From Promethearchaeia archaeon (GTDB lineage Archaea > Asgardarchaeota > Lokiarchaeia > Sigyniarchaeales > SOKP01), in contig JAHQWK010000016.1 of the NCBI GenBank assembly GCA_029856145.1, forward strand, positions 1 to 64,000: a stretch of DNA of 64,000 nucleotides, read 5' to 3'. Made by a program: the position numbers and the translations under genes. The notes under the pieces were generated by a model. It searched no databases, was not told the origin of the DNA, and saw only the letters and a list, made by a program, of their open reading frames with translations. Below are positions 3,996-61,818 of this stretch, in pieces; the stretch's first letter is position 1, and each line of letters begins with the position of its first letter.

Positions 3996-6038
3996 TTAAG
4001 AGTCCAATTTTTTAATTTTAACTATAGCAGAATTATATGCTCCAGAAAATCCTAATTCTTCTGGTTTGTCAGGAACAAAATAGTTTACATTTGGACTTTC
4101 ATGTGAAGTTGAAGATAAACCAGAATATATTAATGCTGTTCTAGGCTTTAAAATTGGAGATTCTGTTAAGATGTATATGCCTGAACCATATTCATTAGAA
4201 ACATGAACTTTACCCCCTATTTCTAAATCTATTGTTTCAATATCTTCTGATGTCAAAAAAATTTTATTAAATTCATTCAAATATCTTTGATTTAATTGTC
4301 CTAATTGAGAATGTAAGAAGTATAAATGAGATGGAGAGATGAGTAAAAATTCATTTTTTTTCATATTTACTTTACGCTTCAGTTCCTTTTCTCCAAATTT
4401 AAAATGTGGACCAATCGCTTGAATTCTTTTATTTGGAGTTGGAAATTTTAAATCATTGAAAGGAACAGAATCATTGCCAAATAATAAATAATAACCTTTT
4501 GAATTCAGGTCTTCTTGAATGTTAGAAGGCAACATTCTCACACTATTTTTAAAAATTGTTTCTTCTGATTCATGGAAAATTTGTGTGTTTTCAAGACTAA
4601 TTCCCCACGCTAATTGTTGGAAGAACTCATAGTTCGATAAACAATCTTGATACGGACATGGACCTCCATTATTAATCGATAAACCTGGTATATAATAAGG
4701 AGATATTAAATCATATGATTCTAAATCAAATTTTGCAGGGATAACAATATCTGCATATTTAGTTGTTTCATTAAAAAACATATCTAATACTATTACAAAT
4801 AGATCTTCTCTCAATAATGCTCTTCTTAATAGATTTTGGTTAGGCAGTGAACTTGCGGGATTGAAATTATACACAAATAGCATCTTATATTTCCCAGAAG
4901 ATAAAAATGAACCAAGTTTGATTATAGGAATTTCAGTCATTTTCGATTCTCCTTTAATATTAGTTATATATTCTTGAAGAGGTTGAAGTAGTGGTTTTAT
5001 AAAATCACTCTGAGAATATACCACCCCAGTACCGGGTTTTCCTATATTTCCAAGTATAGTTTGAATTAATGTAATACTTTTAACTATTTTTCCACCAAAA
5101 TAATCTTTCTGAACACCATATCCGATATTGAACAAAGTTTGGTGTTTGAATTTTATTAGTAATTCAACAAAATTTTGAAATGTCTGAAGATCAATTCCAA
5201 TTTGTCTTAATAGCTTCTCTTTATCGATTTTGGCTACTTCCTGAAAAATTGTTGAGTAGGATTCGACATAACTGTTTAAAAAATCTTCATCATGAGCATG
5301 ATAGGCAATTAGTTCATTAATTGTTAATTTAACTAATAAATGTTCAGTACCCGGGAAGATATGTAGAAATAAATGAGCTTTTTGTGCAATTAATGTATGT
5401 CGAGAATCCACAACCACAAGTTTAGTTCCACTTTTTAAGGCTTTTTTTACTAAATAATAAGCATGATTATTACTCTCTGAAAGATTGCTACCCCAAATCA
5501 CAATTAATTTTGTGGAGGGATTCATTATTTGAAAAGGATTTGTAATAGAATATGTACCAAATAACTCTTTAAGTCCAGCACATCCTCCTTCATTGCAGAT
5601 CCCACCACTTGTTATTGTGGCACCTAAATTCTCAAAGAATCTTAATGGCGCATACTGTGATATTATGCCAGAATTACCCGCATAAAATGCCCCCAAAATA
5701 GACGTAGCATTATTACTTTTCTGAATTTTTTTTATTTTTACAACTATAAGATTGATTGCTTCTTTTAGAGAGATTTTTTTGAATATATTTTCAGATTTAG
5801 GTCCAGATCGGATTAATGGGGTTTTCAACCGTTCTTGATGATATACCAAATTTTCTCTTCGCTTCAATTTTGGGCAAAAAAAACCATTAGTAAATGGATG
5901 GTCCTTTGATGGAACTGCAAATAAAAATTTATGTTCTAATGCCTTATCATTCCAATATCCCTTAAAAACACATGAACCATAACAATCTTTTGAGCATGTA
6001 CCAAATCTAATTATTTCAAGAGAGTCTTTTCTTTTCAT
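3996..6038 (-). CDS. Molybdopterin-dependent oxidoreductase (DMSO reductase family)
   Basis: TCSKDCYGSC...CPK Fe-S motif, WGSN, NPA, ETTKYADIVIP. Confidence 0.88.
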   Translation of the reverse strand: MKRKDSLEIIRFGTCSKDCYGSCVFKGYWNDKALEHKFLFAVPSKDHPFTNGFFCPKLKRRENLVYHQERLKTPLIRSGPKSENIFKKISLKEAINLIVVKIKKIQKSNNATSILGAFYAGNSGIISQYAPLRFFENLGATITSGGICNEGGCAGLKELFGTYSITNPFQIMNPSTKLIVIWGSNLSESNNHAYYLVKKALKSGTKLVVVDSRHTLIAQKAHLFLHIFPGTEHLLVKLTINELIAYHAHDEDFLNSYVESYSTIFQEVAKIDKEKLLRQIGIDLQTFQNFVELLIKFKHQTLFNIGYGVQKDYFGGKIVKSITLIQTILGNIGKPGTGVVYSQSDFIKPLLQPLQEYITNIKGESKMTEIPIIKLGSFLSSGKYKMLFVYNFNPASSLPNQNLLRRALLREDLFVIVLDMFFNETTKYADIVIPAKFDLESYDLISPYYIPGLSINNGGPCPYQDCLSNYEFFQQLAWGISLENTQIFHESEETIFKNSVRMLPSNIQEDLNSKGYYLLFGNDSVPFNDLKFPTPNKRIQAIGPHFKFGEKELKRKVNMKKNEFLLISPSHLYFLHSQLGQLNQRYLNEFNKIFLTSEDIETIDLEIGGKVHVSNEYGSGIYILTESPILKPRTALIYSGLSSTSHESPNVNYFVPDKPEELGFSGAYNSAIVKIKKLDS

Positions 6039-6128
6039 GAAAATTTAGATTAAATTTTAAAATAGATAATATTCTAACTAAAAAAATCTTATTGTAATCA
6101 TGTTTTTTGATAACTACCAAGAATCTTC

Positions 6129-6719
6129 TTAATCAACTGAAATTTTTATATTTTGAATTAGAGCAATCTTATTCTTCAAAAATTCAATGATAGTTTGATT
6201 ATCTTGAGCTTCAAGGGGGTCTCCACAATCAGGACATCTAAAATTAAGCTCAAAAGCTTCATCAAAATTATATTTCTTGTTTGACTCTTGGCATTTTTCG
6301 CAAATAAAGAAATAATTGTTTTGTTCGAACTGTAATCTATCTCTTAATTTGCCATCAATCAATTTCTTTTTCTCAAGAAGAATTTCTTCCAGCAAATCAA
6401 ATTCATGCCACCAGTAATAGATAAACCATCCTGTAGATTTATCTCTAATACGCCTAAATTGAGCAAGTTTTTCAGAATATAATTTATAAAGTGTTTTGCG
6501 AACTGTATTCAACTTTAAGATTTCAGAATCATCAGGTTCGAAGTCAATGTCTGTACCTTCAATACTTTCTTTTATGTTTTCAGTTATATCTTCATCAGTT
6601 ATATCTTCAGATTTAGATTTTAAAAGTTCCATCCCAACATATATTGCGATTTCACCGCCAACAATATATAAAAAAGATCGTAAGAAAGGATTCAATTCTT
6701 TAATATGACTTTGCCTCAT
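6129..6719 (-). CDS. tfe: Transcription factor E (TFE alpha)
   Basis: KLNTVRKTLYKL, TGWFIYYW, C-terminal zinc ribbon FRCPDCG. Confidence 0.93.
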   Translation of the reverse strand: MRQSHIKELNPFLRSFLYIVGGEIAIYVGMELLKSKSEDITDEDITENIKESIEGTDIDFEPDDSEILKLNTVRKTLYKLYSEKLAQFRRIRDKSTGWFIYYWWHEFDLLEEILLEKKKLIDGKLRDRLQFEQNNYFFICEKCQESNKKYNFDEAFELNFRCPDCGDPLEAQDNQTIIEFLKNKIALIQNIKISVD

Positions 6720-6809
6720 TCACTTTATAATTTTAACTTTAATAGATATATCTTTGATAAAAATTAAATTTATTTGAAAATTCCCCTTAGAAAAATTTGA
6801 TTTTAATCC

Positions 6810-7592
6810 TTAAACGACAATCGAATACTGTTTTTCTATAATTTCACCATCAATATCAAGGCTACGAAGCATTTTGCCTTTTCTTATTGCCATTATTCTT
6901 AACAACCTTGAATTTGAAACATTCTTAGGGATTTCAATGTCCGTTATTTTATAATTATTAAAAATAATGATTGATTTCCAGTTTTTTGGGAGGTCAGATT
7001 TAAAATCATATAACGCATTTTCTATTAGATTATTGAGATTTTTCTCTGTTTTACTAAGATATCCAGTACAAAAGTGAATTCTTTTATTTACATCATCTTC
7101 TTCTGCTTTCTTTTTAGAGGGTTGTGGTATTTTTTTTTTGGTAGTTACCTTACAAGTTGGATTTAAATTGAATGATAGTAGAAAATAACTATTTTCCCGA
7201 AATGCTTCAATACTCTGCAATATAGAATCTCGATTTGCTGTATCAATAATCTCCGCCTTGAAATTTTTTGTTTGACCTGTAGATTGTTTAAGATCCCAAT
7301 TAAATCCTAAATTAATTATTATATCATTAATATTTGCTCCACTGATTAATCTTCCTTTAATTTCAAATTTTTCATTTGGATCTGAAATCCCACTCACTAC
7401 TACCTCATGAATCAAATCCTCATATTCATGGCTACCTTTTAGTGTTAATTTAGCTTTTGTTTGGGTTATTTTCAAAGCAGGTCCTATAAAATCTCCTCTT
7501 GAATATCTATAAAAGTGCCGATGAATATTCTTATGATTATTGGCTGGATCATCCAGAATTGGGGTTTCAATAATTTTTCTTAGAAAATGCAT
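6810..7592 (-). CDS. Conserved hypothetical protein
   Basis: 260-aa ORF with normal composition; no recognised motif. Confidence 0.65.
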   Translation of the reverse strand: MHFLRKIIETPILDDPANNHKNIHRHFYRYSRGDFIGPALKITQTKAKLTLKGSHEYEDLIHEVVVSGISDPNEKFEIKGRLISGANINDIIINLGFNWDLKQSTGQTKNFKAEIIDTANRDSILQSIEAFRENSYFLLSFNLNPTCKVTTKKKIPQPSKKKAEEDDVNKRIHFCTGYLSKTEKNLNNLIENALYDFKSDLPKNWKSIIIFNNYKITDIEIPKNVSNSRLLRIMAIRKGKMLRSLDIDGEIIEKQYSIVV

Positions 7593-7747
7593 CTCATTTA
7601 TCCATTTAATTTTCTTTAAATTTAATTCTAATTTTATTTATTAAATATCAAAAGATTATAATTATAAATTTTATTCATTAATAAAATTAAAAAAAAATAA
7701 AACATATTTAAAAATATAGATTATAAAAAAAATTTTATTAACGTAAT

Positions 7748-7948
7748 ATGGCTGATATTCCATCTCTAACTATCTGGGTTTTAGCGTGGTTTTTTCTGAT
7801 TATAGGATTAATTTCATTAACAGTTTTAGTCTTATACACTAAGTATGGGAGAGAAATATCAATTAAACTATCGATCCTTAGTGGTGTAATTTCTGCTATA
7901 TTTTTAGCATTTGCTCTTCACTTTTTATTGCTCTCTTGGGGATTATAA
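7748..7948 (+). CDS. Small two-TM membrane protein
   Basis: ATG start, two hydrophobic helices. Confidence 0.65.
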   Translation: MADIPSLTIWVLAWFFLIIGLISLTVLVLYTKYGREISIKLSILSGVISAIFLAFALHFLLLSWGL

Positions 7949-8128
7949 GCTGTAAAATCAAAAGTATTTCTTTTGAATATCTATTTTTTCATTAATTAAA
8001 GGATTTGTAGTTTTAATTCTTAATTTTTCTCTATTATAACTTGTTATGTTAATATTTAAAAAAGAAGAAAAGTTTTCCTCTAATAACTAAAATTTCTTCA
8101 AATTAATATAAAAAAAAGGTTATTTCAA

Positions 8129-8533
8129 ATGGATGCTACTCTTTGGTTTATACTGTGGCTTATCTTAGCGACGATAATTGTAACATTGATTCTATATATT
8201 GCTGTTTTAGTTATCGTGTCAAAGACTAAAGCCTCAGACAAAAAGTTTTTAATTATATTATTGGCTTTCATATGTGTACTTGTAATTCCAATAGTTTTAG
8301 GTGCAATTAGTACGGTATTCGCAATCTTTAATGAAATCCCATGGAGTGATGGAAATTATTTAACACTTTTAATTCCAATTATTGGCTTTCTAATAATATT
8401 GATTCTTGTAAAATTTCTATTAGATGTTGCTTGGGACAATTCTGTATGGATATCCTTATTAACGTTGTTTATTTTATTCCTTCTGTACACTTTAATACCT
8501 GGACTCGCTAGTTTCCTTGGATTTACGTTATAA
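8129..8533 (+). CDS. Membrane protein (4 TM)
   Basis: Highly hydrophobic 134-aa ORF. Confidence 0.7.
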   Translation: MDATLWFILWLILATIIVTLILYIAVLVIVSKTKASDKKFLIILLAFICVLVIPIVLGAISTVFAIFNEIPWSDGNYLTLLIPIIGFLIILILVKFLLDVAWDNSVWISLLTLFILFLLYTLIPGLASFLGFTL

Positions 8534-8682
8534 TTAGCAAAATAATTGACTTAAAAATTAATTTTTATTTTTTTCTTAAACTTGTTTGATTAATATAAAA
8601 TTTTAAGATAAATAGAGAATTTTCTAAGCAATAAAACAAGTACAGAGAGAGTAAAAAAATACAAAAAAAGAAATTTGTTGCT

Positions 8683-14250: not shown

Positions 14251-14357
14251 TGGCGGGCTATAGGGGAATCGAACCCCTGACCTTTCTTTTTAAGGGAGAT
14301 CTTCCCATAAATGTCAGGTTAAAAGCCTGCTGCGCTACCTGCCTGCGCCAATAGCCC
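14251..14357 (-). tRNA. tRNA-Lys(UUU) with 30-nt non-canonical intron at about 44/45 (14283-14312); CCA encoded
   Basis: Acceptor GGGCUAU/AUAGCCC, anticodon loop CUUUUAA, T-arm AGGGG-UUCGAUU-CCCCU; hairpin insert at the start of the variable loop. Confidence 0.9.
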
Positions 14358-15576: not shown

Positions 15577-15666
15577 GCCTCTGTTGCTTAGTGGTATAGC
15601 GTCAGATTCGTATTTAAATATAGATGAAAAATCTGAAGATCGGGGGTTCAAATCCCCCCAGAGGCT
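15577..15666 (+). tRNA. tRNA-Thr(CGU) with canonical 37/38 intron of 18 nt (15613-15630)
   Basis: Acceptor GCCUCUG/CAGAGGC, anticodon stem UCAGA/UCUGA, central helix UUCG/UGAA, bulges UA|U and AA|A. Confidence 0.92.
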
Positions 15667-16915: not shown

Positions 16916-17088
16916 GCAGGAGTTGCCAAAATACTACGTAATTCTACGTTTATGGCTAAGCCTGGTCTACGGCGCTAGAATAGTACGTAATAATACGTTT
17001 ATGGCGTAACTGAGGCTCTAGTGACATAGGTCTTCGAAGGAAATGCTTCCTCGGCCTAAATTCGTGGGTTCGAATCCCACCTCCTGCA
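16916..17088 (+). tRNA. tRNA-Leu(GAG) with three BHB introns (16930-16959, 16979-17008, 17033-17060)
   Basis: Removing the three inserts gives GCAGGAGTTGCCAAGCCTGGTCTACGGCGCTAGACTGAGGCTCTAGTGACATAGGTCTTCGTGGGTTCGAATCCCACCTCCTGCA, a complete class II cloverleaf. Confidence 0.92.
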
Positions 17089-28293: not shown

Positions 28294-29766
28294 TTATCCC
28301 TTTACTACACCTATTGGAACTAGTCTTACTATTTTTTCAACGATTCCAAGATCTTGGCTGACCTGAACAACTTGATCTATATCTTTATATGCACCAGGGG
28401 CCTCTTCAGCGATTATCTTCATCGAAGCAGCTCGTATCATGATACCTTGTTTACTTAAATTGTCTTTAACTCGCTCTCCCCAATATTTCTTAGTAGCTTT
28501 TGTTCTAGACATTACTCTTCCAGCACCATGCGCTGTAGAACCAAATGATAGATCCATTGCATTCTTTTTACCAACACAGAGATAAGATGCAGAACCCATC
28601 GTTCCTGGGATTAATACAGGTTGTCCTATAGATTTATACTCAGGCGGTAGATCAGGATGATTTGGCGGAAATGCTCTTGTAGCACCTTTTCTATGAACAT
28701 TTAATTTCATTTTTTTACCATCAATTTCATGTTCTTCTATTTTTAAAATATTATGGCAAACTCCATAGATTAAATGTAAACCTAAAGTGTCTATATCCTT
28801 TCTTAAGGTATTCTGAAAGGACTCTCTTAACCAATGCGTAATTAATTGACGGTTGGTAAATCCAAAATTAGCTGCACATGCCATTTGTTTTAGATAGTTC
28901 TGTGCTTCAGGTTTATTTGCTGGAACACATGCTAATTCTCTATCAGGAACTTTTATATTGTATTTTTTCATTGCTTGTTCGATATTGCGCAAAGAATCTG
29001 TACATACTTGATGTCCAAGAGCTCTGCTCCCTGTATGAACCATAACAGTAACTTGATTCTTCTCATGTATTCCTAAAGTTTTAGCAATACTTTGATTATA
29101 AATTTCATTAACTTTTTGTATTTCTAGAAAGTGATTTCCACTTCCCAAAGAACCAAGTTGTTTTATAGCACGTTGTTTTGCTTTTTGTGAAACTAAACTA
29201 GCATCTGCATCCTTTAAACATCCATTTTCTTCTAAATGTTTAAGGTCCTCATCAAAAGCATAATCGTTGTCTACTGCCCATTTCACACCATTATTTAAAA
29301 CTTTATCTAATTCTGAATAGCTTATATTTAGTTTACCTTTCGATCCCAAACCTGAAGGAATATTATCAAAGATTGTATTCAACAGATTAGGAAGCACACT
29401 CTTAATATCTTTAAGAAATAAATTTGATCTTAATAATCTTACACCACAATTAATATCATATCCAACACCCCCGGGAGAAATCATTCCATTCTCTGCGTCT
29501 GTCCCAGCAACACCCCCGATACAAAAACCATATCCCTGATGAGCATCTGAAAGAGCAATAGCATGTTTTTGTATCCCAGGTAAACAGGCAACATTACAAA
29601 TTTGATCTAGAGTCCTATCTTGCTTTATTTTCTCTAAAATATATTCATTAGCATAAATTTTTACGGGGACCCTCATCTGAAATTTTTCGATATTTCCTTT
29701 AACCCGTGTCATTAATGTCTTTGGAGGAATCTCATAGATATTGTCATCAATTTTATTAACATTCAT
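28294..29766 (-). CDS. rtcB: RNA-splicing ligase RtcB
   Basis: DAHQGYGF, GVGYDINCG, GSGNHFLE, HTGSR, HRKGAT, HGAGR. Confidence 0.98.
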   Translation of the reverse strand: MNVNKIDDNIYEIPPKTLMTRVKGNIEKFQMRVPVKIYANEYILEKIKQDRTLDQICNVACLPGIQKHAIALSDAHQGYGFCIGGVAGTDAENGMISPGGVGYDINCGVRLLRSNLFLKDIKSVLPNLLNTIFDNIPSGLGSKGKLNISYSELDKVLNNGVKWAVDNDYAFDEDLKHLEENGCLKDADASLVSQKAKQRAIKQLGSLGSGNHFLEIQKVNEIYNQSIAKTLGIHEKNQVTVMVHTGSRALGHQVCTDSLRNIEQAMKKYNIKVPDRELACVPANKPEAQNYLKQMACAANFGFTNRQLITHWLRESFQNTLRKDIDTLGLHLIYGVCHNILKIEEHEIDGKKMKLNVHRKGATRAFPPNHPDLPPEYKSIGQPVLIPGTMGSASYLCVGKKNAMDLSFGSTAHGAGRVMSRTKATKKYWGERVKDNLSKQGIMIRAASMKIIAEEAPGAYKDIDQVVQVSQDLGIVEKIVRLVPIGVVKG

Positions 29767-61112: not shown

Positions 61113-61818
61113 GGATGAAATAGAACTAATATGTGGGATAGACGAGGCTGGTAGAATTTAATTCGCTTCGAATTATATGTTAAAAGGCTCTGTCTTAGGC
61201 CCTATGGTTTTATGTGGAATTTGTTTCAATAAATCAAAAATAAACTTATTATCTGAAATAGGTGTTAAAGACTCAAAAAAATTATCTCCTATAAGGAGGA
61301 ATAAATTAGCTAATCTCTTGAAAAATTACTGCCACTCATATAAAATCGTTATAATTAGTCCTCAGGAGATTGATGAGAGAGAAAGTAAAAAAATTACATT
61401 GAATCGACTTGAAGAATTAAAAATGGCAGAGATTATCAACACACTGAAACCAGATGTCATTTTTATAGATGCTGTGGATGTAAATGAAGAAAGATTTGGA
61501 CATTCTATAAAAAAATTATTGAATTATATTCCTAAAAAAATAATTTCTGAACATAAGGCTGATGACATATATCCAATAGTTTCAGCAGGTTCTATTATGG
61601 CTAAAGTTAAAAGAGATTCTCTAATTGAAGAACTTCATAAAAAATATGGAAATTTTGGTTCAGGATACCCTTCTGATATTAGAACAATTGAATTTCTTAG
61701 AAATTATGTAAAAAATAATAAGAAACCACCTAAAATCGCAAGGAAATCATGGAATACAACTAAAAGAATAATAAATGAAGAGTTATCTACAAAAAAAATA
61801 ACTGATTTTCTTAATTAA
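61090..61818 (+). CDS. rnhB: Ribonuclease HII; two exons (61090-61154, 61185-61818), about 232 aa after splicing; start codon uncertain
   Basis: Spliced ICGIDEAGRGSVLGPMV, VKDSKKLS, IDAVD, HKADD, GSGYPSD, RKSW, PIP-like KITDF. Confidence 0.93.
61155..61184 (+). other. 30-nt BHB intron in rnhB mRNA
   Basis: Central UGGU/GUUA, bulges AG|A and AA|A, hairpin AUUUAAUUCG-CUU-CGAAUUAUAU; contains in-frame TAA. Confidence 0.85.

Follow-up and report, generated by a model that had tools for sequence, protein, structure and literature searches.

According to a 2026 preprint on the tRNA introns of Asgard archaea (10.64898/2026.10.13.758758), it is open by which route intron DNA arrives in these genes. 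The question is raised in a particular form by a tRNA-Leu(GAG) gene of a Lokiarchaeia archaeon, in which two of three introns are nearly identical: where did the younger of the two come from, and by what route?

Gene architecture and splicing motifs

The gene was found in a window of 64,000 nucleotides (the whole stretch of DNA analyzed) from a genome of 3.55 Mb with 30% GC (Promethearchaeota, Lokiarchaeia), flanked by a roadblock/small-GTPase gene on one side and a peptidase-like gene on the other; relatives with matching loci include Loki_b32. It was detected by neither ARAGORN nor Rfam. Excision of the three inserts (Table 1) gave a cloverleaf tRNA-Leu(GAG) that matches the intron-free alleles of relatives, and the structure of the introns, together with the gene being essential, makes their splicing likely. 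Two EndA genes were present in the genome, both on contigs other than this one; judged from gene count, these paralogues would be akin to the broad-specificity enzymes.

Table 1. Features of the window discussed in the text, numbered from its first letter.
Feature	Position	Strand	Remarks
tRNA-Leu(GAG) gene, three introns	16916..17088	+	discriminator A73 at 17088; CCA not encoded; intron-free orthologue alleles occur in relatives
Exon 1 (tRNA positions 1-14)	16916..16929	+	UGCC at 16924-16927 forms the exon strand of the intron 1 central helix; pair probabilities ~0.8, three pairs
Intron 1, D-loop 14/15, 30 nt, derived copy (very probable)	16930..16959	+	relaxed HBh' motif, 3/4 central pairs
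Exon 2 (positions 15-30, 19 nt)	16960..16978	+	CGCU at 16973-16976 forms the exon strand of the intron 2 central helix
Intron 2, anticodon stem 30/31, 30 nt, donor	16979..17008	+	hBHBh' complete
Anticodon GAG (Leu)	17012..17014	+	
Intron 3, variable arm, 28 nt	17033..17060	+	4/4 central helix; 39% identity to introns 1 and 2, hence unrelated
RtcB tRNA-splicing ligase gene	28297..29604	-	context
tRNA-Lys(TTT)	14255-14357	-	30-nt insert at ~44/45; central helix only 2/4 in the register tested
tRNA, anticodon CGT	15577-15665	+	18-nt canonical intron; second CGT-anticodon tRNA on contig C22, which makes the identity of one of the two questionable
BHB-type mini-intron, 30 nt, in rnhB	61155-61184	+	removal restores RNase HII motif
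BHB-type mini-intron, 32 nt, in elf1-like gene	41846-41815	-	removal restores CxxC pair

Intron 2 displayed the full hBHBh' geometry (4-bp central helix, 3-nt bulges, flanking helix), with four central pairs, four intron pairs, and three possible exon pairs. Its strand GGCG pairs with exon positions 25-28 (CGCU); among 39 alleles the four central pairs were kept through G-U variants, two of the three pairs of the intron helix were kept in 37-38, and compensatory changes occurred in the stem. In intron 1 the strand GGCU faces exon positions 9-12 (UGCC), the outer pair being U-U and the exon helix being absent, and the motif corresponded to the relaxed HBh' form and not to the canonical BHB, as for other D-arm introns; two other D-arm introns of this genome likewise lacked the outer central pair. 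Alternative registers at 12/13 and 13/14, read from the sequence, would give the same mature tRNA without a central helix. Both insertion sites offered the GC(C/U) partner pointed out in an initial annotation of this DNA, the match being complete (4/4) at intron 2 and limited to 3/4 at intron 1.

Relatedness of introns 1 and 2

Introns 1 and 2, each 30 nt long and spaced 49 nt, were identical at 25/30 bases and differed at positions 5, 14, 15, 28, and 29, in agreement with the near-identity described in the initial annotation. No other of the 990 intron pairs in the genome was as similar (83% vs. 40.5 ± 6.7% for unrelated positions), these pairs being formed by the 45 introns of a hand-curated, incomplete census that covered about 40 recovered tRNA genes; the next best unrelated pair in this census reached 70%. 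The likeness started at the first intron base, and the exon flanks showed none beyond a 3-of-6 match, itself imposed by complementarity. The identity of 83% at 14/15 and 30/31 lies above the level of 80% at different positions that is taken as the mark of Thermoproteales-type transposition.

Two AT-rich 30-nt hairpins shaped by identical structural demands might have become alike by convergence, and many introns of this genome are indeed 30 nt long, start with A, and end in AA. However, hairpins simulated with an identical fold and GGC strand reached 25/30 with P = 1.2e-5, and this null, the ranking of the pair above the 70% noted earlier, and the closeness of the intron 1 consensus to the intron 2 alleles found in its own clade effectively refuted convergence, which is scarcely credible as an explanation. 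Intron 1 is very probably an in-gene copy of intron 2.

Direction and age of the copy

Intron 1 was present in 11 of the 54 genomes (species) of the genus and in eight metagenome contigs, always at the same site, with 30 nt, and accompanied by introns 2 and 3. Among the tips of the flanking-protein tree, 27 carried intron 2 without intron 1, 18 both, 13 neither, and none intron 1 alone, and the intron 1 consensus was closest to the intron 2 alleles from the carrier clade. This indicated that intron 2 was the donor and intron 1 the younger copy, so that the intron copying proposed in the initial annotation was supported, with the direction 30/31 to 14/15.

Sixteen carriers formed one clade (0.99 with FastTree, only 69 with SH-aLRT). 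The mean copy-to-copy distance within a genome was 6.1/27, as compared to 4.8/27 and 6.3/27 between orthologues of introns 1 and 2, respectively; with 3/27 differences, the pair of this genome is at the conserved end of the range. No signal of concerted evolution between copies was obtained, within-genome pairs being no closer than permuted ones (p = 0.14), and a sister-swap test gave one case for and two against it; in two lineages the own copies were identical at 26/27 bases. Since the copy is common to 11 species and paralogue distances are about those of orthologues, it was single and older than these species. Intron 1 had a single origin, in the common ancestor of one clade within this Lokiarchaeia genus, and its sequence has diverged independently since then; the copying had been called recent in the initial annotation, a term that does not suit an event predating at least 11 species.

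The 26/27 identity in two lineages would also be accommodated if introns 1 and 2 each derived from a third donor (a virus, a mobile element, or a tRNA other than this one), or if an unrelated 14/15 intron had later been homogenized with intron 2; the passage of intron alleles between species and the similar end of a 30-nt 14/15 intron in tRNA-Thr(TGT) point the same way. However, the body of the Thr intron is dissimilar and outside the top pairs, no such donor was found in the 54 genomes and viral contigs, and the permutations gave no sign of concerted evolution. We consider this explanation very improbable.

Later spread of intron 1

On the tree, intron 1 of contigs L042 and L045 was placed on a separate branch, and a single clade for all carriers was rejected (delta lnL 281; AU p = 0.0003 with 5000 replicates). 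Their own introns 1 and 2 differed at 9/27 bases. The first 150 nt upstream showed 84-86% identity to the carrier clade (vs. 66-68%), and the regions farther upstream and the downstream flanks matched their intron-1-free relatives. These two contigs thus obtained intron 1 by a short homologous-recombination patch comprising the promoter region and the 5' part of the tRNA, with one crossover within or beside the 19-nt exon 2, the crossover interval of the recombinant allele. An assembly chimera seems unlikely, since the outer flanks on either side again match one and the same set of relatives; the two contigs may share one source sample. At least one other lineage received intron 1 later, through a DNA patch, and this patch, along with the rejection of a single carrier clade in the AU test, makes DNA-level exchange evident at the locus.

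Further intron alleles were also distributed patchily over the genus. The 14/15 intron of tRNA-Thr(TGT) (L117, L125-L154) was near-identical in scattered species and missing from close relatives of this genome, whose own tRNA-Thr(TGT) allele looks chimeric, a pattern suggestive of tRNA alleles having been exchanged laterally. A different allele of Leu-GAG, distinguished by A9, G6, and a D-loop insert of 59-60 nt (possibly two or nested introns), was scattered over the tree (L050, L060, L068, L074, L076, L078, L083, and L091). One relative (L105) harbored a second, partial Leu-GAG fragment bearing intron 2 at about 600 bases from the full gene.

Target site and search for further copies

Full pairing with the donor strand GGCG was possible for 45 tetramers, which were distributed over 27 of the 38 mature tRNAs. 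Leu-GAG holds two of these tetramers, the donor's own site and the recipient at positions 9-12, which the unusual U9 makes a full 4/4 partner of the donor strand. The recipient is therefore one among 44 compatible sites besides the donor's own, yet the sole copy lies in the donor's own gene, which indicated that copying was local.

No further copy was present within six mismatches in the whole genome, tRNAs and mRNAs included, and a scan with all introns gave seven BHB-compatible matches as compared to seven in shuffled controls. A search with the intron core over the 53 relatives in the genus detected no copy outside Leu-GAG, those off-target matches that were inspected not being tRNA introns; the core was absent from viral contigs, where the exon matches were unrelated. 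No family spanning at least two tRNA types, as in the Thermoproteales, was found in this genome and the 53 relatives. Among the observations that the initial annotation had named as speaking against its reading, the absence of other copies was thus encountered in the genome and its relatives, and retained duplicated exon sequence was not.

That annotation had also explained the insertion sites by complementarity to the central strand of the intron. Positions 9-12 are indeed the only other fully pairing tetramer in this tRNA, which upholds the complementarity itself but does not separate targeting from selection after insertion. Because sites that pair with one strand are also alike as DNA (3/6), RNA targeting, DNA microhomology, and selection for spliceability cannot be told apart from sequence alone; the point about spliceability is made in the Asgard preprint too (10.64898/2026.10.13.758758).

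Route of the copy

A short-range copy at the DNA level, kept because it was spliceable, is the most likely route and on balance a probable one. A template switch or misaligned repair, inside the gene or between two gene copies, would have copied the intron over 49 bases, aided by the short stretch over which the sequences upstream of the two sites are alike, and by the GC that the intron central strand has in common with exon positions 10-11. The copy would then have been retained, with EndA and RtcB removing it, because U9-C12 is, apart from the donor's own site, the only stretch of the tRNA at which the central strand rebuilds a bulge-helix-bulge; complementarity would act here as a survival filter and not necessarily as a targeting step. 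The top pair of the 990 falls within one gene, which only 19 of the pairs do, and the second-best pair joins adjacent genes.

The 3' end of intron 1 was GGCTAA in 17/17 alleles, 11 of these found without bias. A switch-back to exon 10-11 via the shared GC predicts a 30-nt insert ending in GGCCAA, one transition from this end, and an exact copy of the present donor ends in GGCGTA, with the fourth central pair, two transversions away. The 3' junction therefore leans to a DNA template switch, although weakly, since 23/45 introns end in AA and that pair is missing from other D-arm introns as well; GGCTAA may equally be drift after an exact copy, and donors ending in GCGAA exist. Against the DNA route, the 5' boundary and the length match the donor exactly, which this route gives only through selection; moreover, it explains one event read after the fact, with flank likeness at just 3/6 bases. 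No intermediate between donor and copy occurred among the alleles examined.

The exact 5' boundary and length would come at no extra cost by reverse splicing, the mechanism put forward in the initial annotation. The excised, probably circular intron 2 would pair via GGCG with U9-C12, EndA would cut and RtcB join crosswise, and a reverse-transcribed copy would recombine into the gene. The full pairing of the recipient due to U9 agrees with this route, both EndA and RtcB are encoded, and reverse transcriptases were found in 7/54 genomes of the genus. However, RVT_1 was found in none of the 11 carriers, this genome included, and the copy is confined to its own gene, which is not favored in principle among the 44 compatible sites; the carriers thus showed neither of the two marks of a retro-mobile intron, a reverse transcriptase and dispersed copies, and dispersed copies were also missing from the 53 relatives and the viral contigs. 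The fourth 3' pair was lacking in 17/17 alleles. In addition, the Asgard preprint (10.64898/2026.10.13.758758) found no cDNA signature and a review (PMC4090602) supposes intron gain at the DNA level. Given carriers in which no RVT_1 was detected, a copy in its own gene only, and the missing pair, reverse splicing is unproven, and we consider it rather unlikely. A wider version, in which EndA and the ligase can run backwards and insert 30-nt introns at pairing RNA sites, this pair being a preserved case and the same eroded route having made the uniform 30-nt introns of tRNAs and mRNAs, is doubtful.

The 49-nt period, equal to exon 2 plus an intron, would also fit a tandem duplication of exon 2 and intron 2, tolerated as 49 nt spliceable at 14/15 via GGCG/U9-C12 and followed by exact deletion of the spare 19-nt exon; the fold model gave some weight (0.07-0.29) to cross pairing between intron 2 and exon 9-12. 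However, no allele contained an exon remnant and none of about 60 loci the 49-nt insert, two precise events would be required, and the end predicted is GGCGTA. Such a two-step origin is improbable.

Comparison with known systems

The in-gene copy resembles the transposed introns of Thermoproteales (Fujishima et al. 2010, as presented in PMC4090602 and PMC4033280) in that related short BHB introns occupy differing non-canonical positions, constrained by rebuilding of the BHB motif. In those accounts the families span many tRNA types, and transposed families make up 28% of Thermoproteales introns (10.64898/2026.10.13.758758); in contrast, the present case comprises one copy in one gene of an Asgard lineage, with no family elsewhere. 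As in Asgard multi-intron tRNA genes (PMC11291895; 10.64898/2026.10.13.758758), several non-canonical introns occur per gene, gains are repeated on the tree, and relaxed-motif D-arm introns are overlooked by annotators. The preprint (10.64898/2026.10.13.758758) reports families across at least two isotypes at 1.5% and gives no general arrival route, and its text names neither Lokiarchaeia nor tandem copies; since only cross-isotype families were counted, an in-gene copy would be invisible to it.

The movement of an intron-bearing tRNA segment between close relatives by DNA recombination recalls the intron gain in Caldiarchaeum tRNA-Thr via mobile elements (PMC3293823), but no integrase, att site, or element was seen here, and the patch, with the promoter and the tRNA 5' part, measures a few hundred bases. 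The proposed route shares with template-switch mutations in RNA genes (PMC8794818) a replication-linked short-range copying by which hairpins are built or repaired in one step; the likeness is an analogy only, because those copies are reverse-complement and this one is direct. No published in-gene copy of a tRNA intron was found in the literature, and the primary papers (Fujishima 2010, Sugahara 2007, Tocchini-Valentini 2011) may list such cases. It is rarely possible, as it is here, to name the source of a newly gained tRNA intron in an Asgard archaeon. With a polarized gain, a named donor, a single compatible recipient, and a later spread by a short recombination patch, the locus offers a compact system in which DNA copying and reverse splicing can be tested against each other.

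Other intron pairs and mini-introns in mRNAs

Without the focal pair, in-gene intron pairs were no more alike than others (p = 0.53). The in-gene pairs of Gln-TTG and His-GTG were rejected as a second case (ranks 33 and 7 of 990, weak across relatives), and no second clear one appeared among some 87 long tRNA genes of relatives, the best direct repeat being 16/24. In-gene copying, with one event and no second among the 18 other pairs and those ~87 genes, therefore does not account for most of the introns. The second-best pair of the census was again local and consisted of the T-loop introns (59/60) of the adjacent Ser-TGA and Lys-CTT genes (L124; contig C18, 78294-78565), 73% alike with identical 3' ends; the Ser-TGA intron has an 11-nt loop in common with Leu intron 3. 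In Leu-GAG of L050, L078, and L088, the T-loop intron and the 30/31 intron had an ACGT...TTATACG hairpin top in common, a possible second in-gene exchange that is below the direct-repeat threshold used.

An origin of introns templated by exons was not above chance in the genome (3/45 and 1/45 at p < 0.05). The 3' arm of the basal 30/31 intron in L053, L062, L066, and L121 repeats 9/10 bases of the adjoining upstream exon, and the 21/22 intron of Ile-TAT also repeats its upstream exon, as might follow from an exon-templated origin, without genome-wide significance.

The introns of the mini-intron candidates in rnhB and the elf1-like gene (Table 1) matched introns 1 and 2 at 12-15/30 bases, which is background, and other candidates did likewise. 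The family of introns 1 and 2 thus did not invade mRNAs, an invasion that the initial annotation had thought reverse splicing could explain. A genome-wide scan for mRNA introns gave 179 matches vs. 99 in the control and was too noisy for a census. A split rpoA suspected at 3996-8600 was ruled out, the region containing unrelated intact genes. Similar mini-intron candidates were seen in pyrG (contig C23, 64816) and in a mutase subunit gene (C19, 57732).

Non-canonical tRNA introns measured exactly 30 nt in 19/36 cases and 27-33 nt in 33/36, though unrelated in sequence, as compared to 17-48 nt for the canonical 37/38 introns of the genome and medians of 22-23 nt in other Asgard groups (10.64898/2026.10.13.758758). 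This suggests a length ruler, acting at insertion or at splicing.
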